Source: Lama guanicoe (taxonomy: Eukaryota). From it: a DNA stretch of 62,000 bases. A program made the translations under genes and the position numbers. Location of the stretch: the NCBI GenBank assembly GCA_013239625.1, contig MU053933.1, forward strand, positions 1,821,026-1,883,025, written 5' to 3'. Below are positions 12,559 through 48,800 of this stretch, piece by piece (the stretch's first letter is position 1; each line of letters begins with the position of its first letter). The notes beneath the pieces were generated by a model. That model had not been told where the DNA came from. It worked only from the letters and a program-made list of their open reading frames with translations, and did no database searches.

Positions 12559-13883
12559 TGATCGTGCCCAATACAATTATCCGTCACGGTGCGCTCAGCC
12601 ATTCTGCCCGGGAAACCCCCCGGGGCAAAGAAGAGTGTGACACAGATGGAATCACACGGCAGGCCTCTGACTTTGGGCTGGAGTCTCCTCGCTCAGCGTA
12701 GTTCTGTCAAGCCCCATCCTGGTGGTGGTGTGTAGCAGCAGTTCAGCCCTTTTTCTTGCTGCTGTGTCTTCCGTGGTGTGGACGGACCACACGGTTTTAA
12801 CTGGTCACCCGTCCAAGGGTACCTGGGTGGGGTTTCCAGTTTTCGGGCACTGGGGGTAGAGCCGCCTAAACCCCTGCGGGCTCACCATTCCTTCTGGCGC
12901 AGCCCGCCTTGGGGAGGCCCTGCCTGGGGCAGAGCAAACCCCGCGGGGATCCCTTCAGACAAAGCCTACAGCTATCCCGATACATAATTGAACAGGCTCT
13001 TTGCGATCCGGAGACAACGTAATGGGCTACCAGGAAAGAGCGTTTGGGCTCCCGTTCCAGCAACCTTGAAAAAACCAAATGCTGTCTTAGGAGAAAAGAA
13101 TCTGAGAAAAAAGAATGGACATTGACTAATAAGCATAGCATCATTTTCGCAAATTGAAAATGATTGAAAGGAGTGTCTGAACCAGTATTTGTGCTGAATT
13201 CAAGCACTGTCTAAATGAGCACGTGAAAAAACGGTCTCTGATAGGCCTGCTCGGTGGGGAGAGCGCAGGCGGCCCCGTGCGGCCCGCGAGCCGGGGGCCA
13301 CCGGGGCCGGAGCGGCGGCTTGGCCCTGCCCCGCCCTCCGCCCGCCCCGCCGCCGGAAGGGGCGGTCCTCCCGGCCAGCGCCGGCCGCGGCCGGCCCCAG
13401 CGCTGCCGCCGAGGGGGCGTCGCTGGTGTCTGCTTCCTCGGAGCCTCCGGGCTCGGCTCTGCGAGAGCAGGCTGAGGACGTGTAGACCCGCGCTGCGGCT
13501 GCACGTGGTGCTGTCAGTTTTATTTTATTTTAGTTTTTGCTACGTGGGTGGATGTGAAGCGATAGGTCGCCGTGCCTGTAACGTGCGCTTCCCTGCTGCC
13601 TAGAGGCGGCGGCGCGCCCTCCCCCGCGACCACGGCCCTTGGGGTTGGTCCCCCCTCGTTTCGTTCCCCCGTTGCTTCTGCCCTGCTTCTTTTTGGATTA
13701 ATCAGGTATTTCACGTGTCCCAGTTTACTTCCTCTACTGGACTCTTAGCCGAACCTTTTATTCTTTTTTCCTGGTAGTCTTGCCCTGGGGCTGCACACAC
13801 CCAGGCTCAGGCCGAGCTCTGTGGAGTCGACGCCGCATCACTTCAGCCTTCGCCCTTCACGCGCAGCCCGACTCGCCGCCCCC

Positions 13884-14594
13884 NNNNNNNNNNNNNNNNN
13901 NNNNNNNNNNNNNNNNNNNNNNNNNNNNNNNNNNNNNNNNNNNNNNNNNNNNNNNNNNNNNNNNNNNNNNNNNNNNNNNNNNNNNNNNNNNNNNNNNNNN
14001 NNNNNNNNNNNNNNNNNNNNNNNNNNNNNNNNNNNNNNNNNNNNNNNNNNNNNNNNNNNNNNNNNNNNNNNNNNNNNNNNNNNNNNNNNNNNNNNNNNNN
14101 NNNNNNNNNNNNNNNNNNNNNNNNNNNNNNNNNNNNNNNNNNNNNNNNNNNNNNNNNNNNNNNNNNNNNNNNNNNNNNNNNNNNNNNNNNNNNNNNNNNN
14201 NNNNNNNNNNNNNNNNNNNNNNNNNNNNNNNNNNNNNNNNNNNNNNNNNNNNNNNNNNNNNNNNNNNNNNNNNNNNNNNNNNNNNNNNNNNNNNNNNNNN
14301 NNNNNNNNNNNNNNNNNNNNNNNNNNNNNNNNNNNNNNNNNNNNNNNNNNNNNNNNNNNNNNNNNNNNNNNNNNNNNNNNNNNNNNNNNNNNNNNNNNNN
14401 NNNNNNNNNNNNNNNNNNNNNNNNNNNNNNNNNNNNNNNNNNNNNNNNNNNNNNNNNNNNNNNNNNNNNNNNNNNNNNNNNNNNNNNNNNNNNNNNNNNN
14501 NNNNNNNNNNNNNNNNNNNNNNNNNNNNNNNNNNNNNNNNNNNNNNNNNNNNNNNNNNNNNNNNNNNNNNNNNNNNNNNNNNNNNNNNNNNNNN
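13884..14594. other. Assembly gap (711 N)
   Basis: Run of N flanked by GC-rich sequence. Confidence 0.99.
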
Positions 14595-17599: not shown

Positions 17600-18750
17600 G
17601 CTGGTGACTCCTGGGAGCTTCCCGTGTCCATGTGTCGGTGCTAGTGACCCCCCGTGTCCGCACGCGCCTGTCAGTGACCCCTGGAGCCGTCCTCCGCATC
17701 GGGCACCGCGGTGGGGGGGGTGTGATGCTCGTGGGCGCCCCGCGGCGAGTCCCAGCTGCTCGCCCCAGGCCAGCCCTGTCCCCCGAGGGCGCCGGCCCGG
17801 GGGCGGCTCCCAGCCGTGCAGCCCCTCCAGTGCAGGACCCACCGCCGCCCACGGCCGGTCCGCGCGGGCTTCGGCCCCGACGCTCGGAGTGAACCTCCGT
17901 GGAGACTCCGCGGCCGGGGCGCCTTTCGGTCGGAGGACAGCGCTCGCCCGGCGTAAGGGCCTCCCCTTTAAGCCGCGCGCCCCGGAAGCGGTCCCGCGGC
18001 GCGCCGGCACCGGAAGTGGATGCGGCCGGCGGGCGGCGGCGGCGGCGAGCGGCCGGCTCTGGAGCTGCCTCGCGCGGCCGGGCGGGCGTCGCTGTCGCGA
18101 CCGCGGCTCCGCTCAGGCTCGGGCTGGCCCTGCGCGGCTTCGGGCTGCCCATGGGGCGCGGGGGGCCGGACCGGTGACGCCGGACGCCCATGGACGCCCC
18201 TGAGGAGCCGCTGCCGCCGGTGATCTACACCATGGAGAACAAGCCCATCGTCACCTGTGAGTGCCCGGCGGCGCGGGAGGGGGCGGCGGCCGTGGCGGGC
18301 AGCCGGGCCCAGGTCGCCGGCCCCTCGATCCCGGCGGCCCAGGGCCTGCACTCCCGGCCCTGCCGCTTCCTGGAACGGAGGTGTGGCCAGGGCGGTGGCT
18401 GCGGCGGGGCTCCTGTCCCCGCGGGCGACCTCCGACCTCCCCGGGGCCGTCCGCCAGCCTCCCCTGCGGGGGACCTCTGACCTCACGCGGGCGACCTCCG
18501 ACTCCGCCGGGGGACGCCTTCCCGGGTTGTTTGGGCTGCAGTTTGACAGGCCCGGGACGCGGTGCACCCCAGAATCTAGGGCGCGCCACGGAGTGGGGGC
18601 CCCGCCGTGTGCCCCGTCCAGCCGCAGGCTCGGCAGCTCGTCCCGCGACCCGGGGACCGGTCCTTCCCAGCGGAGACCGTTCTCCCTCTGATCCCGCGGG
18701 GGCATTCTCTTGGCTGTCGGTTGCGAGCGTGGACGAAGTTTGTGTGCGGT
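17600..18750 (+). promoter_or_regulatory. CpG-island promoter of TRAPPC10 with tandem ETS/GABPA-type CCGGAAG motifs (17982-17989, 18010-18018)
   Basis: Very high GC and CpG density spanning exon 1; two CCGGAAG(C/TG) sites about 180-210 bp upstream of the ATG; no clear TATA box. Confidence 0.88.
18190..18256 (+). CDS. TRAPPC10: TRAPPC10 coding exon 1 (MDAPEEPLPPVIYTMENKPIVT-C)
   Basis: Translation matches the TRAPPC10/TMEM1 N-terminus as I recall it. 67 nt, donor T|GTGAGT, inside a CpG island. Confidence 0.97.
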
Positions 18751-34377: not shown

Positions 34378-34510
34378 GGGGGAAGGGTATAGCTCAAGCG
34401 GTAGGGTGCATGCTTAGCGTGCACAAGGTCCTGGGTTCAATCCCCAGTACCGCCTCTAAAAATAAGTCAGTAAACCTAATTACCTACCCCCGAAACCAAA
34501 GGAAAAAAAA
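34378..34510 (+). mobile_element. tRNA-Ala-derived SINE (camelid Vic-1-like)
   Basis: GGGGAAGGGTATAGCTCAAGCGGTAG (A box) ... GGTTCAATCCCC (B box), A-rich tail, degenerate TSD aagttactcaacatc / aaattattccacatc. Confidence 0.88.
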
Positions 34511-35220: not shown

Positions 35221-36842
35221 CAGGTTATATAACCAAACAAGCAAACAAACAAAAAAACAAGCAAACAAAAAGCCGTACCAAGAAAAACTGGAGAAAAGAA
35301 AACCCGAATTTGCAGTCTCTAACAACATTTCAAACACTGCATAGAGTAGAGTGTTTAAGAAGAGTCTTCTCAAGCTCCTGAGGGAAAGTGCCTCTGAACC
35401 TGGAGTTCTATGCTACTCACCCCTGCCGGAGGGAAGGCCGAGTCAGCCTCCCCAGGCCCTGGAGGAGACAGGGTGCCCGGAGGGTTTGTTTCTCTTAGGC
35501 CTGGGGGGGCCCTGATCTGTCACTTCTGGCTGTGCAGCCCCACGTGTTTGCCCCAGAATGCATTTAGGTCTCACACTCCTGCGTGCCACCCAGTGGAGCT
35601 GGCTGGGAAACATGCAGCCAACATAAACATTTTCAGATGTAGATGATCAGAAACTTTACCACCTTCTCTGAAATAATCAAAGGGTGTGTCTCAACAAGAA
35701 GAAAAATGAACCCACAGTTCAAGATGAAGGAAGCAGCTGCCAGCAATTAAGTCATTAAAATATTTTGCTCTAGTTATGGTATCGATCCTTTTACAAAGTA
35801 AAAAATTAAAATTTTGGATGAGTGGAAGACAGTAGAGAAGAAAGTGTTCTGTCTTTCTTGTTCAAGGAGAGGGAGGCATTTGCTTTAGTCTTAGAAAGGA
35901 GAATTTAAGTGCGTGCATACTAAACATTAAAATGTAATCAACAGCGGAAAAGAAATGGTTGCTTAAACTTTCAAACGAGCAGAGAAAAAGGATGGAAAAA
36001 GAAAACTTGATTAATCTCAAAAAGGACAGAAAAAAAATAAGAGTGTAAAATAGAAAATCCCCAAGTTTAAGCGTAATCATATGAAATATGGTTGGTTTCA
36101 ACTTACTAATCACAGAGACTCCTTAGATTGGATTAAAAAAATGCAAAATCCAGCTTACAGATATTTAAAAGAGACACAAGTACTGGAGGTGGAAAATAGG
36201 GGTATGGAGAAAAGATATCTGTAGCATAATTTATTTTTAGAACTATAATAAATAGCTTTCTTACCCTCTGATAGCAGTGGATTGGGTGTGTGTAGCTTGT
36301 GGGGTTTCTCTGTGTGTTTAGTTCTTGGGTTGAGAAATACTGGGGAAGGATGGTCACTACTGTTTATTTATGCTGTGCAAACAAAAACCTGTTCTTTTCC
36401 ACCAAGCAGTTTTCTTTTTGGACAATACATGTTGTCACAAAAGTATTAGAGCGGTTAAAAGCTTTGGTAACTTCCAACTGCACTTTTGGCATTTGGGGAA
36501 CTCTTTTCCTCTTATAGTGGCTGTTGATTAAGTAACATCCATTTTTCTCAAGTCTGTTGTTGCAAATTGTCTGGTTTGATAGAGTATTACTGTGCAGGTA
36601 TTGTTGAGTGAAATGAAAGATTTATGGAGAGGGAGCTTTGCATGTAAATGTGAATGGGGTTTAAAGTAATTTATAGAATCTTTTCAGATAGAATATGTAA
36701 TAGTTATAATTCATGGTTAATATCATGTACATAGTTCTGAGCTCATAGATATGATTAAATTATTGCTGTATTTTTCTCCTATCCTTTCTGCTGAACATTC
36801 TTTACTCATTTTTCTTAGTGACTTGTTGAGAATTTCTTACAG

Positions 36843-36978
36843 GTCCTATGGCCGGGCTCCGAAGATGATTCACCTCGAGTCTAACTTTGTTCAATTCAAA
36901 GAGGAGCTGCTGCCCAAAGAAGGAAACAAAGCCCTGCTCACTTTCCCCTTCCTTCATATTTACTGGACGGAGTGCTGT
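36843..36978 (+). CDS. TRAPPC10: TRAPPC10 exon 3 (SYGRAPKMIHLESNFVQFKEELLPKEGNKALLTFPFLHIYWTECC)
   Basis: ttcttacag| acceptor, |gtgagt donor, 136 nt; lies within ORF 36751..37191. Confidence 0.97.
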
Positions 36979-40600: not shown

Positions 40601-41200
40601 ACTGACTGGTATGTTGAAGTCTCTTATTATTAGTATGTTTCTATTCCTCTTGCATCTTCCATAATTTCTGTTTTGTACAGATGGTTGATGTATTATTTCG
40701 TGCATAGATATTCGTAAGTATAATAATTCTTATGGAGTGAAATATGTCACTAAAAACATGGGTTCTGAGTAGTGTTCTGCTTCATGTTTAGGAAGGCCTT
40801 GTCTATCTGAAGATAATAGCTGATTTTCTCCTTTTTTTTTGATGATTTTATAATTTGTGTTTTACATTTGGATCTGTATGGTTTCAAGTTATCTTTGTGT
40901 ATGGTGGGAGCAGTGTGGGTTCAGGGTCTAATTTAAAGTATAAATGGTAGTAAATTGGCCTAACATTTCAGAATCATTTAGCTTTTCCCCATTTATTGAA
41001 AGTGTCATCTCTACTTTAAACCAATATCTTGTATGCTCAATATTCTGGACACATCGGTTCTATTGACCATTGTCTGTTCTGTGCCAGGACCAGACTTTTC
41101 ATTACATTTAATTACATTTTTATAACGCGTATTGGTGTCTGTTCTTTAAAATAAATCTCTTGGCTAGTATACATGTTCTCTTCCGCATACGTTTTAGAAT
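37700..41200 (-). mobile_element. Long degenerate L1M remnant (ORF2 and 3' region)
   Basis: Scattered antisense L1 ORF2 motifs, e.g. aaaccatctgggcccggtcctttc and attttactgcattgtgatcagag. Confidence 0.65.
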
Positions 41201-41229
41201 CGGGTTGCTAGGTGTACAAATTTTGTTTT

Positions 41230-41700
41230 CCAAAAATGTCTGTTGTACCAATGCATCCCGTCCCACGTGCTCTTCTTTGCATGGCAGTGACCTTCCTCTG
41301 TTGAGAGGTTAGGTCTTTGTTTTCTCCAGTTGAATCTGGGTGGGCGTCTGACTGGCAGAAGGGACACTGTGACTCCTGAGACTGTCATAAAAGGTAATGT
41401 ATCTTTTGCCGGGTCCTCCTGGGATGCTTGCTCTTAGATCCTAGCCCCCATTCTGTGATGAAGTCAGTGCCCCCAGGAAGGCCCTCTGGGGTGTGCACCC
41501 CTGGTCCCAGCAGACGCCGCCAGCAGGCCAGTGTCCACCACCACCGTGTCTGCCTTCTTGCTCCCCACAGCTGGTGCCGGGTGGAGTGGACGAGCTGTCC
41601 AGCAAATCTCCAGAATGTAGATTTGTGAGCGGAGTAAATGTTCTGGACCACTTGGTATTATAGTGGTTTGTTACAAAGCCATGGATAAAACTGGGACACT
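41230..41700 (+). mobile_element. MaLR LTR (MLT1F/H-like) inside L1
   Basis: ttgaatctgggtgggc...gtggtttgttacaaagccatggataaaactgggaca terminal motif. Confidence 0.6.
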
Positions 41701-42439
41701 GATTGAAAAGACTGGAGGTGTTTTGGTTGGGATTGCCTAGAAAAAGTTACAGGTTCATTTGAGAAGAATTTTAGTGGTCACGAGTTCTCTCATCTGGGAA
41801 CCTGGTTTGTTTCTCCATTCTTTATGCCTTTTTTTGTGCCCTTTAGTGATGTGTTGTAATGTTTTTCACAGAAGTCCTGCAGCTTTATTGCTAGATACAG
41901 TGTTTGTGGACAGTACGGATGTGGGTTTTCCCTTAAACTGAAGTTCTCAATAGGGAGCCTTTGGGGTTGTTGTTGTTTTAGGGTTTTGTTTTGTCTTACT
42001 TTTGATTATTATCTGTTAAGAAAGTTTCCGGGAGCAGGCTGACACGGTTGAGGATTTTCAGAGTTAGAAGTAAGGCCCTCTGTCGGGTTCTCTCAGTGGC
42101 CGCTTTGGGGTTTACAGTCTGCGCCGTGACTCCCGGCTCCTTCCGTCAGTGCTGTTGGGCTGCTTGGCACGCGCTTTCATTTCCCCGCCTTGTGTGTGTT
42201 GTGGACCCCACATACGTTGTGACTATTTTTGCTTTAAATAGTCAAGCTGTTTTAAAGAGAGCAAAGGTGAGGAAGGGTGTCTCTCTGCCTGCAGGGCGGC
42301 CGCTGCCAGCGCCTCCCGCCCCGGGCCCGTCGTGTGGGGGTCCCGCCCTTCAGCCGGTGCTGCGTCCTTCTCCCCGGAGGCCTTTCCCTTTCGCACAGCG
42401 CGGGCCCGCTGGCGAGCAGTTCCTTCAGCTGTCACGTAC

Positions 42440-43400
42440 TGAAGAAAGAATTTTGCCTTCATTTTTGGAAAATATTTCCCTGATAGAGAAGTCTAGTTTG
42501 AAGTTTAATTTTCCTTTCAGCACTTAAAGGATATTACTCCACTGTCTTTTGGTTTCTGTTGTTTCTGTTTGTTTGTTTCAGTATATTTTTATTAAAAATA
42601 CGGCACGCTTCACGAGTCTGCGTGCCGGCCCCGCGCAGGGGCCGCGCCCGTCCTCTCCGCGTCGTTCCAGGGCGAGTGCGTGTTTCTCTTGTCACCCCTG
42701 AGAAGCCTTTGATGTTTGTCTCGTCACTTTGTACATAAGTGTCTTTCCTTTAGTGGTTTAAGATTTTTTTTCTTTATCAGTGATTTTAAGCAGTTTGGTT
42801 ATGATATGCCTTGGTATAGTTTCCTTCATGTTTCTTGTGCTTGGAGTTTTTTGGTTTTTAGGGTTTGTAATTTTGATCAGATTTAGACTATTTTTGGTTA
42901 TGATTTCTTCATATAGTTTTCCTGTTGCTTTCCTTCTGTGCTCTCCTTCGGGGACTCCAGTTACTCGTGTGTGAGGCCACGTGAAGCCCCAGCTCCCTGA
43001 GGCGCTGCTGCGGTTCCATCCGTCTGTGTTGCACTTGGAGGATCTGTTTCTCCGCCTCCACATTACCAGATCCTTTCTTCTGCAGTGTCTGGTCTGCTCT
43101 TAATCCCACCCAGTGTGTTTGTTCACTTGAGACATTATGATTTTCGTCTCTAGGAGTTCCACGTGAGTCTCCTTCTTTTTAAAATGTCTTCCATGTCTGC
43201 TTACCATCAGGCTTTCTCTGCCTTTGTGAACACATGAAATATGGTTGCAGTAACTATTTTGATGGCTTTGTCTATTAATTCTATGATCTGTATCGTTACT
43301 GAGTCTATTTCTGTGGTCAGTTTAGGACTAATCATCCCTCACTTCCTGAGTTCTCTGCCCGATGCCCTGTGAATTGGGAGGTTTTCCCATCTGGACTGTG
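42440..43400 (-). mobile_element. L1M ORF1 remnant
   Basis: ORF 42758..43063 (-) reads RVTGVPEGE...YEEIITKN...TIPRHIITKLLKITDKEK, matching L1 ORF1p. Confidence 0.85.
42595..42683 (-). pseudogene. RNU6: 5'-truncated U6 snRNA retropseudogene inserted in an old L1
   Basis: Gapless 89-nt alignment to the reverse complement of canonical U6 (63/89 identical). T-rich tail on the left; candidate TSD GTTTCTGTTGT (42552-42562) / GTTTCTCTTGT (42682-42692). Confidence 0.9.
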
Positions 43401-45666
43401 GAAATAAGTACTGTTCCTGGCCCTGTGCTGGTGTGCAGTCCCGCCTGACGGCCTCTCCGAGGCTCTGTGCGGCTCCCACCCACGCGTGCCGATGAGGTCC
43501 CGGCCGGATTCCCCAGGGCTCTCTCTGTGCTGCTGGCTCCTCTCTGGTGCTCTGACCTGCGAGGCCGTCCGCCTTTGCCTCCCAGGACTCCTTGGCTCCT
43601 CCTCCTCCACGCAGGGAGTCCGCCAGGCTCGACCTGTCTCCCGCCCTCTGTTACGGTCTGTAAGCGCTCCGGGTGGTCAGCAGGGCCGCTCCAGGGCTCG
43701 CCTTGCTTGTTTTCCTTTCTCAGGGGTCACTGTCCCGTGTTGCCTGATGTCCAGGTCTCAGAAACCCTTGGTTCATGTTTGTTTTGCTTGTTTCAGGTCG
43801 TTGTGTCCGTCTGGTCCTTGTCACTTCGTCTTGTCGAAGTGGTGGTCAGCATGTGCTCACTGATTTCTAGTTTCCGGTGTGTAAGCCGTTACTGTCATTA
43901 TATATTTTAAAGCTCAGATTATCCCAGCTTTGGCTTCCATGTCCTTAGTCTCAGTGGCTCAGCTTGGGTTCCTCTTCTGCAGAGTCACCGAGTCTCTTTA
44001 GTAATGTTCCCCATTTGCTCACTATCGTGAGCGATGGGCTAGATTTTGTACTGATTTTCCCCAGAACTTTGTGGAGCCCTGTCCAGCCTGCTGCTCAGCG
44101 AGCCCTCTCCTGAGAGTCCCTGCATACCGCCAAGCTGGTGTCCCCTTGGGGTGCAGCAGGAGAGCTGAGGGTGCGGGGGGGACTGGAGTTGGAGTCCAGC
44201 GAAGGACGCCCGGAACCAGCCCCCGTGACAGCCTCGGAGCTTTTCCCAGCTCTTCACTGCACCTTGACTGGCTGCTCTTTGATTTTAAAGCTACCGGAGT
44301 CTGTGGCTGCTGGTCCCCTAGCCTTTTGGTTTCACTTTCCAGGTGGCATGCATCTGGGTCCATAGAGTTCTGCCAGAACACCGACATCGCAAAGTCTAGA
44401 CCTCAGGTCCAGAGAACCACCACTGTGTGGGAAACATGCAGTATCTGAGCATTACTGTTGGATAGTAATTCACAGAAAATCAATTTTGCAGGGTGGTTTT
44501 CTTCTTAATTTTAAACCAGAAGGTCTTTTTCAGATTGTAGTTGTTTTAAATTTAAATTGAGGACATAGCAGTTTTTAAAACTTCTAAGTACTGCCTTTTA
44601 GAACTTTTCACTTGTCAATTAAATCATAGGAGGGACTGGATACAGAATTTGAAATTTAGCTCATTCATGGATCAAAATCACATGAGTGTTATTTGAGAGA
44701 GACTAAAAATCCAGACAAAATACGGACAGGATAATGAGGAATCTTTCTATTAAAAGTGGGAGAAGTAGATATTTAAACAGTAGCTATGAATTATAGTTTC
44801 CAAAAGTTTGTAAGCGCCTTGTGCTGAAATGAGATAAGCATCTTGGTTTTAGGTTTTCACTCTTGAGTCTGCTAGGTGGGTTTGTGGAGTACATGACAGC
44901 TGTAAGCAGAGACAGACAGCAAGGACCCCTTCTGTTTCCCTGCTTCCCTGGAAGAGCGCTGAGGCTGGACTCAGCTTTAGTGCAAGCAGGGTGCTCTCGT
45001 TGGCAGGCAGAGCGTTTGGGACTTGGAGTCAGAAGCCACGTTCATTTCTGGGACCAGGCTGGCTCCCCTGTGGATCCATAAGAATGAGAACCACTTTGAG
45101 AGCCCTAGATGGTCCCCTTTCCTCGGGTTCGCCTCTGAAGCGGCCTTGCCTTGACACGGCCTGCGAGGGGCTTGGAGGTCGGCTTGGTTCTGGGGCCCCC
45201 AGAGAGCCGAGGGGCTGTGAGGGAAACCATGGTGAGACTGGCCTGGGCTTTCTGCGAGTGGCCGCAGCCCTGGGCGGGCAGCCAGCCTGCAGCGGGAGAG
45301 GCCGCTCGCCACTCCGTCGCGGCGGGGCCGGGGGCTGGGTGGGGCCCCGCAGCGCTTGGGGGCGGGGCCTCTGCCGTACACAGCTGGGTTTCCAGGTCCC
45401 AGCTCACTAAGCAGATCCTGTGGCTGTGGGCAGCTTGCTCGGCCCTCTGACTCCGCCTCTTCCCTGTGTGTTGGGGGAGCCTCCCTCAGAGCCACTGGTC
45501 CACGGGCTGGCGCGGAGCGGCCTGCAGCGCCCGCAGCGGCACCGCGCTGGTCCCGTCCCGAAGCGGTCAAGCGCGGTTGCTGCTCTACTCTTTGTTACTG
45601 GACACGTCTTGCCAGGAAACTAGGGTATTGATGAGCCTGCTTTCACGGAGACTTGTTTATTTTCAG

Positions 45667-45863
45667 GATACTGAAGTGTATAAAGCTGCAGTAAAAGACG
45701 ACCTTACCAAGTGGCAGAACGTTCTGAAAGCGCATAGCTCGCTGGACTGGTTAGTAGTGGTAGTTGAAAATGATGCCAAGAGGAAAAACAAAACCAACAT
45801 CCTTCCTCGAACTTCTATTGTGGACAAAATAAGGAGTGACTTTTGTAATAAACAGAGTGACAG
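45667..45863 (+). CDS. TRAPPC10: TRAPPC10 exon 4 (DTEVYKAAVKDDLTKWQ...DFCNKQSD-R)
   Basis: tattttcag| acceptor, AG|gtaagt donor, 197 nt. Confidence 0.97.
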
Positions 45864-48800
45864 GTAAGTGTATCTTTCATTTTTCCTCGTTGGGCTGGAA
45901 CCTGGATGTGCGTTTACTGGCTCCCGAGTAGGAACAGATACGAACGCTGTGTGCGCCTGTTGTGTGCCTGACCCCTGAGCGTGCGGTGTGTGCTCAGGGA
46001 AGGGCCACATCCCTCTCCCCACGGAGTTCCTGGGCTGCCGGCAAGAACGCGCAGGAGCTGCCTGGGACGAGAGGCCCTGCACTCGCAACCGTGGGGCGAA
46101 CACAGGGCCCGTCTGAAGACAGGGAACGGGTGTCGGCGCAGGAGGGTTTTGAGCAGTCTGTGGCCCCTGTGTGCAGTGGGGTCTCTCAACGATTCTTGGT
46201 TAGGGGACCCTGTGTTTTGCTTGTTTACCTAAACACCTAGTGAGATTCCTGAAGCAGAGGTTGTAAGATGCTGACCCAATCTCCTTCAGATCAAGGTTGA
46301 GATTGAAAGGGAATCTGAAAGGCTGCTCTAGAGCGTGCACTTACCTTCCCCTCTTGCTTTTTCCCTTCTGGGCCTTGTTCCCTCCTGTGGGCACTGCAGT
46401 ACCTTGCTGTTCAGTGACGCCGCTCCAGCTGTGCTGGCCAGCGTGTTTCTTAACACCGTGCCCATTTTAGTCTGTACCTCGTAGTTTCGCACTTCCGCTC
46501 CCCCAGGTCCGGGGGTGCGGTGGTGAGCCTCATCCCTGTGCTGGAGCGGCGGGGTCAAGTGGCGGAGACGGGTGTTGCTTCACATCCCCATCATCGCACT
46601 TGGGGTTGTCATGGTGGCAGATGCTCAGACGGAAGGTTCCAGAGTGTGGCAGGAGCCTGGAGCAGGGGTCTGGCCTGCTCTGAGGGCTGCTGGAGCTGCC
46701 CTGAGAAAGCAGTGCTGAGGCTAAGAAGTAAGGGTGCAGAAGGAGGTGAGGGAAGACGTCCGGGGTGCGTGTGGCCGGGAGCACCAAGCAGAGGCCGCCG
46801 CGCGGCTGACTCACCTGCGGGCTGCATCCGCGGTGGGGCCGCCCCGTGAGTCCACAGCTCTTCAGGGAAGCAGCCACATGTGGGCTTCCTCTTTCTGTCC
46901 CACACGATCCTGGCCACGTAGCAGTGTCCTGGCTTGGCTTTGTCTAAAGTTTGAGTCAAATATTAGTTTGTTGAGCTTACGGTTTATCTGAGGGAAATTT
47001 CATGCATTGGACTTGTGGGAAGTTTTTCCTAAAATCTGGTGTTCACAAACTAGTTATCTCAAAGGAAGCAGCTTAACATTCTAACAAGAAGCCCCACAGC
47101 TGAGTGTGCTTGCCGCCCTGTGCCCCCGCACGCTGACGTTTCTGTTCTGGGGGAAGCGAGAGCGGACGCCGTGGGCCAGAGCGGAGGGAAGGGAGCCGGC
47201 CACCCGGCCTCCCCGCGCTCGGGGCACTGCAGAGGAACCGCGTGTTTGGGGGCTTCACTCAGTAAATAGATAGGCACTAGCGCGGTGTATTCGTCTGAAC
47301 TTGTGAAAGGTTCAGATTCTGTAGTAAGTTTTTCAGAGTGCTTGTGGGTTACTTTTGTCTGTGTTACAATTTTTATCTCATTGCCGACAGTCTGTTTCTG
47401 CTGGCCCATTTAAAACTAACTTGTTTTTAGTGATGCTTCTTTATATTTTAACTTAGAAAAATTTTTAATATTTCATCTCAAGTATTTAAAAATACCGTCT
47501 AACATTTTGATCTTCATTAATCTCCTAAGCTACCTTTGACAAATCTGTGTTCTTTTTTTGTCAAATCTGTGTTCTTAAGGTATAGATTTCACTTAATAGA
47601 AAATTTTTTCTTTGAACAATAAATGTATTTCTACACCATTATTGTTAGTATATACTATTCTATAATATTAATGCACTGTAAGTTATTTAGGTAGTCCTCT
47701 GCTGGACTTAGAAGTTATTGCTTACTTACTATTATAAACAACATTATAAACCTCTTTCTAGCTCAGAACTTAATTTACATCTTTAATTATTTCCTTAGGC
47801 TAAGTCCCTAAAAGGAAAAGTACTTGGTAAGAGTTTTGTGCACTTTTGAGCTTTTGGGGTGCTGAGACGGGGGCCGTGTGCTGATGGTCCGCGCCCCAGG
47901 GGAGGCGGGTCCCAGCCCGCGGCTCCCCGCCACGCAGCGCTGTGCTCGTCTCCTCATGGGCCCCCGCCGCCCTGCTTTGAGCTGTTTCGGGTTCTCCCTT
48001 TACGAGTTAACTGTCTAGGCATGATGTGAGTTTCTGAAGCTGAGCTGTTTTTTTTATTAATAAAAGAGGAGGATCTAGAAACAGTATACGCTGAAGGGCA
48101 GAATAGGGGATAGAGAGTGTAATGAATATATTGTCTGATTGGTAAGTACTGGTCACTGAAAAAAATGCTGTTTTTGTGTTTAGTGTTTGTGTCAGTTCCC
48201 GTTTTCACCCTCCCCTGTAGGTTCAGGGTGCAGGGTCTGTGTCTGGTCCAGAATAAACGTTGACGAGTGCAGCCCTTGAGAATGCCTTAGGGGCAGACTG
48301 CTGAGCTGATGGTTCTGGCAGCTCCCGTCTGAATCATACGCGTTAGCCCTTTGGCGGGGAGCTTGGGAGCGAGCTTTCGGGGAAGAAGCAGTGTCTGGTG
48401 GGGTGGAGTGACTGGAATTAAAGCCAGCTACTGGTTTTTGCATTTTCCTCTTGGTACTGATTATTCATTCACCTGGTGGATTGTCCAGAGTATGGGCTGT
48501 CTCACCCTTTTTCTCCACTGATGTGTAATTTCATAGGTTTAGTCCTTCCTCCGGGAGGTATGACGGGGCTCAGAGAAAATGAAACTTAGAAATCTGTCGT
48601 TTTGCTACTTGCTGGTAGTTCATGTGAAATATTCACAGAGGAGAAGTGTTGAAACTCACAGCATCAACATTTGAAAAGCATTTCTGAGCTCAGATTTATC
48701 CGTCTTCTTTCTAGAAAGAAAGGCACCTTTTCCAGCCTGCCGGGTGAACGTGCTGTCTTTTGCAGCTCCGCTGGAAGCACTTGTGCTTTTATGTCTTTGT

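Follow-up and report, generated by a model that had tools for sequence, protein, structure and literature searches.

GC-biased gene conversion (gBGC) favours G/C alleles in heteroduplex repair, so that changes from A/T to G/C (W>S) go up, the reverse changes (S>W) go down and the other classes stay untouched. Biased clustered substitutions were reportedly described by Dreszer et al. in 2007. In humans, the mean strength B is given as 0.27-0.43, but hotspots can pass 10 and B is above 5 in 1-2% of the genome (PMC4510005), and in human non-crossovers the G/C allele was favoured in 68%, with mean tracts of at most 300 bases (PMC4404656). The gBGC tracts found with phastBias are concentrated near telomeres, the strong ones measuring a few hundred bases (Capra et al. 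2013, PMC3744432). In Bovidae and Muridae, synonymous W>S changes were found in clusters, with the suggestion that hotspots last longer outside primates (Galtier 2021, 10.1101/2021.05.05.442789). PRDM9-independent hotspots lie at hypomethylated loci (Joseph et al. 2024, PMC11161765); the main text of that paper names no camel, alpaca or Vicugna, though its supplements may list such species. In gerbils, runaway GC evolution raises all four classes of change over megabases (Pracana et al. 2020, PMC7403616), and for the insertion itself the closest relatives are the L1-mediated processed pseudogenes of U6 of the poly(A) class (Doucet et al. 2015, PMC4476161). A case report on 21q22.3 lists four human U6 pseudogenes, RNU6-1150P, -396P, -859P and -1149P, without positions (PMC12779367); these are leads towards a possible human ortholog of the copy described below.

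The locus described here is an intronic U6 copy in a window of 62,000 nucleotides (the whole stretch of DNA analysed) from Lama guanicoe. We read it as a peak of about 100 bases of strong, long-running gBGC on a mild subtelomeric background, and we give this reading a probability of roughly 0.8. It resembles the phastBias tracts (PMC3744432) in its clustered W>S changes, in GC-conservative changes that are not raised, in its place near a telomere and in a length of a few hundred bases or less, but its ancestor is a known, near-invariant RNA and not an inferred primate ancestor, and its shift (49% of W sites) was summed over a much longer, undated time. The within-gene hotspots of Galtier (2021), with clustering modelled at 40 and 500 bases, are similar, but they concern coding sites in four families that do not include camelids, whereas the U6 copy is non-coding and not polarised by branch. 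Like the hotspots at hypomethylated loci (PMC11161765), the copy is a CpG-dense GC peak, probably long-lived, in a genome with open PRDM9 SSXRD and SET exons; unlike them, it is not promoter-like, has a size of about 100 bases and lies deep in an intron. The extreme clustered W>S skew, found partly at chromosome ends, is shared with the gerbils (PMC7403616), but here W>W and S>S changes are not raised and the extreme part covers about 100 bases. With the poly(A)-class pseudogenes (PMC4476161) it shares the U6 sequence, the A-rich 3' end and the target duplication, but it is 5'-truncated and too diverged for the Rfam gathering score.

For positions 41000-44500 of the window, Rfam returned a single match, U6 (RF00026) on the minus strand, with 34.7 bits and E 3.3e-6, which agrees with the identification that the earlier note had made by hand. 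The score is below the 44-bit gathering score because of divergence. The reference was drawn from the same genome, where 48 top matches were scored and 30 fetched, and one identical 107-nt U6 common to six genomic loci was taken as canonical. The copy aligns to it without a gap over 90 nt, with 64/90 positions identical (71%); the earlier note had counted 89 nt, as it omitted one terminal T, but the gapless alignment stands. Coordinates of the copy and its surroundings are collected in Table 1.

Table 1 Features of the U6 insertion and its surroundings (positions in the window)
Feature	Positions	Strand	Basis
Upstream TRAPPC10 coding exon, Pfam PF23036 positions 37-84	36841..36978	+	
Old host L1-like repeat, left part	42150..42567	-	paralog comparison
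Target-site duplication copy beyond the tail, near L1 paralog majority; edges uncertain by 1-2 bases	42553..42567	.	paralog alignment
Decayed A-rich tail, about 26 bases after the terminal T run, T-rich on the + strand, not GC-shifted	42568..42593	-	sequence
U6 snRNA retrocopy, 5'-truncated, nt 18-107, 26 W>S	42594..42683	-	Rfam and alignment to genomic U6
Target-site duplication copy at the U6 5' end	42683..42697	.	direct reading and paralogs
Old host L1-like repeat, right part	42698..43850	-	paralog comparison
Downstream TRAPPC10 coding exon, PF23036 positions 82-153	45658..45876	+	

The U6 copy is a retrocopy truncated at the 5' end, with an A-rich tail and a target duplication on its flanks; it sits in an old L1 whose host part we take to be ORF1. 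By direct reading the two 15-base copies of the duplication are identical at 10/15 positions, and in 25-26 paralogs they map to one and the same stretch of the host repeat; the model columns of the host repeat run from 455 to 460 across the insert. As regards a candidate L1 endonuclease site (TTTT/A), the duplication is A-rich on the insert strand, but its edge is imperfect and uncertain. The duplication copy at the 5' end carries several C's where the paralogs mostly have A or T, so the shifted patch extends over about 42601-42700. The insert is antisense and lies between two coding exons of TRAPPC10, which bears out the intronic location given by the earlier note; its label "intron 3" rests on human exon sizes, by which the two flanking exons are probably exons 3 and 4. 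Elsewhere in the window, 17650-18640 is CpG-dense and probably holds the TRAPPC10 promoter and first exon, and further CpG-dense patches lie at about 13200-13600, 45270-45570, 46750, 47150, 52140 and 59450. There is also a run of 711 N at 13884-14594, and at 34378-34495 a SINE with a tRNA-Ala head, for which ARAGORN predicted a tRNA gene; it has thousands of candidates genome-wide and resembles camelid Vic-1.

All 26 differences from the genomic U6 are W>S (12 A>G, 8 T>C, 4 A>C and 2 T>G), and the counts of S>W, W>W and S>S are all 0, just as the earlier note had reported. Changes thus affect 26/53 W sites vs 0/37 S sites (Fisher P 3.9e-8), and GC rose from 0.41 in the source to 0.70. The ancestral CpGs said to be retained are indeed all there (5/5), and 10 new ones bring the total to 15 in 90 bases. 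The probability that 26/26 changes are W>S is 2.8e-11 without bias and 2.9e-7 under the spectrum of the contig's own repeats. With 20 transitions and 6 transversions the spectrum is mutation-like, and it is symmetric between strands, since 16/31 A and 10/17 T were changed (P 0.76). CpG-driven change was tried as an explanation and rejected, because W>S rates were equal at CpG-making sites (6/12) and other sites (20/41). The ACAGAGA box, the AGC triad and U74, which are functional motifs of U6, are all altered, so the copy is not a working U6; nt 1-17 are absent as well. Retained function or a special fold was therefore rejected, given the lost motifs and an RNA fold z of -0.91. Dating the copy by GC-conservative changes was uninformative, as none occurred in 90 sites.

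To see how far the shift reaches, ancestral states of the host repeat were taken as the majority of 29 fetched paralogs, in alignments that are noisy. Against this majority the host repeat showed W>S at 167/719 sites (23%) and S>W at 23/346, compared with W>S 1170/15362 (8%) and S>W 605/4672 when each paralog was used as the centre (P 4.6e-11), and none of 276 control 90-base windows exceeded 23% W>S. In an HMM alignment with CpG-prone sites excluded, the W>S:S>W ratio was 63:8 for the host vs 1639:721 for paralogs (P 3e-4); this alignment was noisier and its contrast smaller, with W>S at 21% vs 15% and S>W at 13% vs 29% of the non-CpG-prone sites, and its 50-base bins were overdispersed (P 8e-4). 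A second GC- and CpG-rich patch was found in the left host repeat at about 42290-42430, with W>S at 28/47 W sites in 42300-42399. This patch is as extreme as the U6 copy and about 200 bases away from it, but its ancestor is inferred. Between these peaks the left flank at 42500-42575 was unshifted, with W>S at 2/37, a figure biased low because the paralogs were picked by likeness to that stretch, and the first 90 bases or so of the right flank were also unshifted (2/49). Farther out, the right host repeat had W>S at 104/457 and S>W at 19/252. The GC content was 0.31-0.33 just right of the insert, so the earlier note's description of the adjacent L1 as AT-rich holds immediately to the right, but it fails at 150-300 bases off. 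Its words "very local" need the same division: the peak is sharp, with about 100 bases on each side unshifted, but it is one of several peaks in a shifted zone of 1.7 kb, on a contig with mild bias throughout. The 200-base bin at the copy has GC 0.52 and CpG o/e 1.18, and its rich part is about 100 bases and intronic. Over a 262-kb region, 31/2897 90-base bins had at least 12 CpG at GC of at least 0.65. Nucleosome-like spacing of GC patches was looked for in 63 contig stretches vs 23 controls, and no periodic peak appeared; extra autocorrelation was seen only under about 90 bases.

The mild bias was measured in repeats of the same contig. Among 36 SINE copies in 642 kb, counted at non-CpG-prone sites and after copies with fewer than 30 informative sites were dropped, W>S was 169/1183 (14.3%) and S>W 44/1007 (4.4%), vs 43/573 (7.5%) and 38/511 (7.4%) in 18 unselected control SINEs. 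The contig copies differed among themselves (P 3e-5), with one at 12/22. Two SINEs lie far above the contig mean of 14%, namely the copy with 12/22 W>S at the contig start and another with 13/38, 84 kb upstream of the window. W>S per copy showed a rho of 0.31 with flank GC (P 0.07). In 31 other repeat segments of the contig W>S was 8.5% and S>W 6.4%, with none above 18%, vs 4.8% and 8.8% in 70 control segments, and the GC-conservative changes were similar, with W>W at 1.3% on the contig and 1.5% in the controls and S>S at 1.3% in both. The shift is thus mild along the whole contig, stronger within the 1.7-kb zone, and peaks over stretches of about 100 bases. The contig spans 3,784,424 bases and has a TTAGGG-type array at its end, about 1.92 Mb from the U6 copy. 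Most sampled stretches of it had GC 0.50-0.64 and CpG o/e 0.33-0.59, dropping near the end, vs GC 0.33-0.54 and CpG o/e 0.10-0.44 in 20 stretches on other contigs. The last 10 kb hold a telomere-type array rich in variant units such as CTAGGG, and in the last 100-300 kb GC falls sharply to 0.36 and CpG o/e to 0.16, unlike the remainder.

Other U6 copies of the genome served for comparison. The 31 other fetched loci carried 47 changes, of which 38 were S>W (30 at CpG), 6 W>S and 3 others, but this control is biased to top-scoring and hence the youngest copies. We therefore scanned for the core, exact U6 nt 54-81 with A/T sites free to become G/C. This gave 44 copies with all 19 G/C intact, of which 42 were unchanged and 2 shifted, the window copy at 7/9 sites and a copy named L156 at 4 sites. 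When CpG decay was allowed, 175 copies were found; a hand count of W>S per core in the first 100 listed gave 69 with zero, 16 with one, 10 with two, 3 with three, 1 with four and 1 with seven, so within these 100 the window copy is the most shifted (7/9 sites; next 4). L156, a retrocopy of the entire U6, has undergone 13 W>S and 2 S>W changes and is independent of the window copy. It lies at 35.64 Mb of a 36.24-Mb contig (C55224), 0.6 Mb from the end, where GC rises towards the near end and a telomere array was not seen. At 5.73 Mb of contig C55228, two near-canonical U6 copies with the same sequence lie on opposite strands at a distance of 3.3 kb and are probably a true U6 gene pair.

Taken together, gBGC is supported by the strand-symmetric W>S excess, the lack of GC-conservative changes, the telomere 1.9 Mb away and the failure to find a GC-rich source, and every sequence-level prediction of gBGC that could be tested here agreed with the data. 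The distance to the telomere-type array is only a proxy for high recombination. In the mechanism that we propose, the L1 machinery would have copied a tailed U6 into a site in the intron, where the copy was presumably neutral after insertion. Meiotic breaks, placed either by PRDM9 or by open chromatin, may then have fallen repeatedly in the zone around the insert, and short non-crossover tracts would have driven new G/C alleles to fixation at several times the neutral rate, and the same conversion would have protected G/C alleles, CpGs among them, from loss. That half of the A/T sites changed while the G/C sites all stayed is likely due to gBGC that was strong and acted for long here. When W>S is scaled by B/(1-e^-B), with 0.67 changes per W site, the time-averaged B at the peak would be about 4-15, and the regional B about 1-2 above the genome background, the regional excess coming out at about 0.9-1.8. 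The average is 4.1-10.4 if the insert is as old as the host repeat and 8.6-15 if it is SINE-aged, figures that are rough, given the undated insert and control rates that rest on majority calls. Modelled S>W fixation is below 0.2% of neutral at a B of about 8 or more and 7% at B 4, so that under strong B the kept CpGs need no low methylation.

The earlier note had proposed gBGC at a persistent hotspot. The gBGC part is backed by the W>S symmetry, the repeats and the telomere, and the long duration would follow from a B of about 4-15, since an average this high points to a long-lived or repeatedly used hotspot and would be hard to reach with one short-lived hotspot. SSXRD and SET exons that we take to be PRDM9-like have open frames in this genome (C9322, 4.27 Mb). 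Such exons do not exclude PRDM9-independent hotspots (PMC11161765). On the other side, the unshifted flanks of about 100 bases are sharper than a simple hotspot predicts, and an average B of 4-15, if the estimate holds, exceeds human genome means and would count against the gBGC reading.

The alternative that survives best also invokes gBGC, but places the cause of the peak in the insert: five U6 CpGs in an AT-rich repeat, unmethylated in the germline, would have drawn PRDM9-independent breaks, and each round would have added CpG in a feed-forward manner. In its favour, the shifted patch has the same extent as the insert plus its 5' duplication, with unshifted flanks and tail, and hypomethylated loci act as hotspots in many mammals with intact PRDM9 (PMC11161765). 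W>S changes occur in only two of the 44 cores that retain both CpGs (7 and 4), but this is equally expected from gBGC alone, and 74 of the first 100 listed of the 175 cores had lost a CpG by hand count. The equal patch (28/47) in the host repeat 200 bases away also speaks against it, and so do the patch's size of about 100 bases and its distance of about 24 kb from the gene's 5' CpG-rich stretch. Context seeding in the SINEs was rejected separately: W>S in the GC-rich head was 17% on the contig vs 7-10% in controls and in the AT-rich tail 10% vs 3-4%, so the head was no more enriched over controls than the tail. We regard seeding by the insert as unlikely.

A local mutational process, for example error-prone repair synthesis turning A:T into G:C in the WA/TW context with no fixation bias, is much less probable still. 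In this context 17/25 sites were changed vs 9/23 elsewhere, a weak trend (P 0.08), and 20/26 changes are transitions, but such a process leaves unexplained the 0/37 S>W with five CpGs kept, the absence of W>W and the lower S>W rate over the contig. The trend leaves some room for a mutational part beside gBGC.

It is very improbable that a GC-rich U6-like donor was copied or overwrote the site, that the RNA was edited before insertion, or that the assembly is wrong. A donor could be missed, because genome searches score the best candidates only, but a search with the copy found only itself and one near-canonical U6, and the changed sites common to L156 and the window copy (8/12 vs 6.4 by chance, P 0.23) are no more than chance would give. 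From the core scans and the comparison with L156, a GC-rich source family is absent from view and the window copy is the extreme of its family; the GC-rich source gene that the earlier note had named as a danger to its reading was looked for by genome search and core scan and not found. A-to-I editing would produce A>G alone, on a single strand, whereas 14/26 changes are T>C, A>C or T>G. As for the assembly, 145 words from the 1.4-kb stretch around the copy were looked up in 24 listed sequencing runs, and 20/24 held 0.74-1.00 of them; the other four held none, but these are small runs and uninformative. After nine possible source runs were taken out, 11 runs from six studies remained, five of them at 0.94-0.96. 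Words spanning changed bases make up about 8% of the stretch, so with even sampling of words a run that lacks them would be expected at 0.92 or lower. Judged by shared words, the copy is not an assembly error. Selection for a GC-rich regulatory element of TRAPPC10 is just as improbable: the insert is intronic and CpG-dense (15 CpG/90 bases), but unrelated repeats over 3.8 Mb shift in the same direction, the U6 motifs are destroyed with an ordinary RNA fold, and 26 separate sites would not be expected all to be selected towards the same chemical class.

The literature that was searched, with subscription journals mostly outside its coverage, yielded no paper that treats this locus or uses U6 pseudogenes as markers of gBGC. 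The process of gBGC and its clustered subtelomeric footprint are already known, and no new mechanism is added here. A bolder reading, which we hold to be doubtful, is that near the chromosome ends of this lineage, probably that of the camelids, short inserts bearing CpGs might turn into fixed conversion foci of about 100 bases. Such foci would survive PRDM9 turnover over tens of millions of years, and the average B would come near 10 within the length of one non-crossover tract; U6 copies, with their invariant ancestor, would then be calibrated gauges across mammals, and the most affected of them would escape standard annotation. The U6 copy is an unusually clean teaching case of gBGC, because its ancestor is exactly known and the count of 26 to 0 is model-free. 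It indicates that in neutral DNA half of the A/T sites can be rewritten within a patch of about 100 bases, and that such rewriting suffices to take a U6 copy below the score required by Rfam and to create a small cluster of CpGs out of junk DNA. With hundreds of U6 copies per mammal, the same comparison could map long-term gBGC and test hotspot persistence in PRDM9 species.
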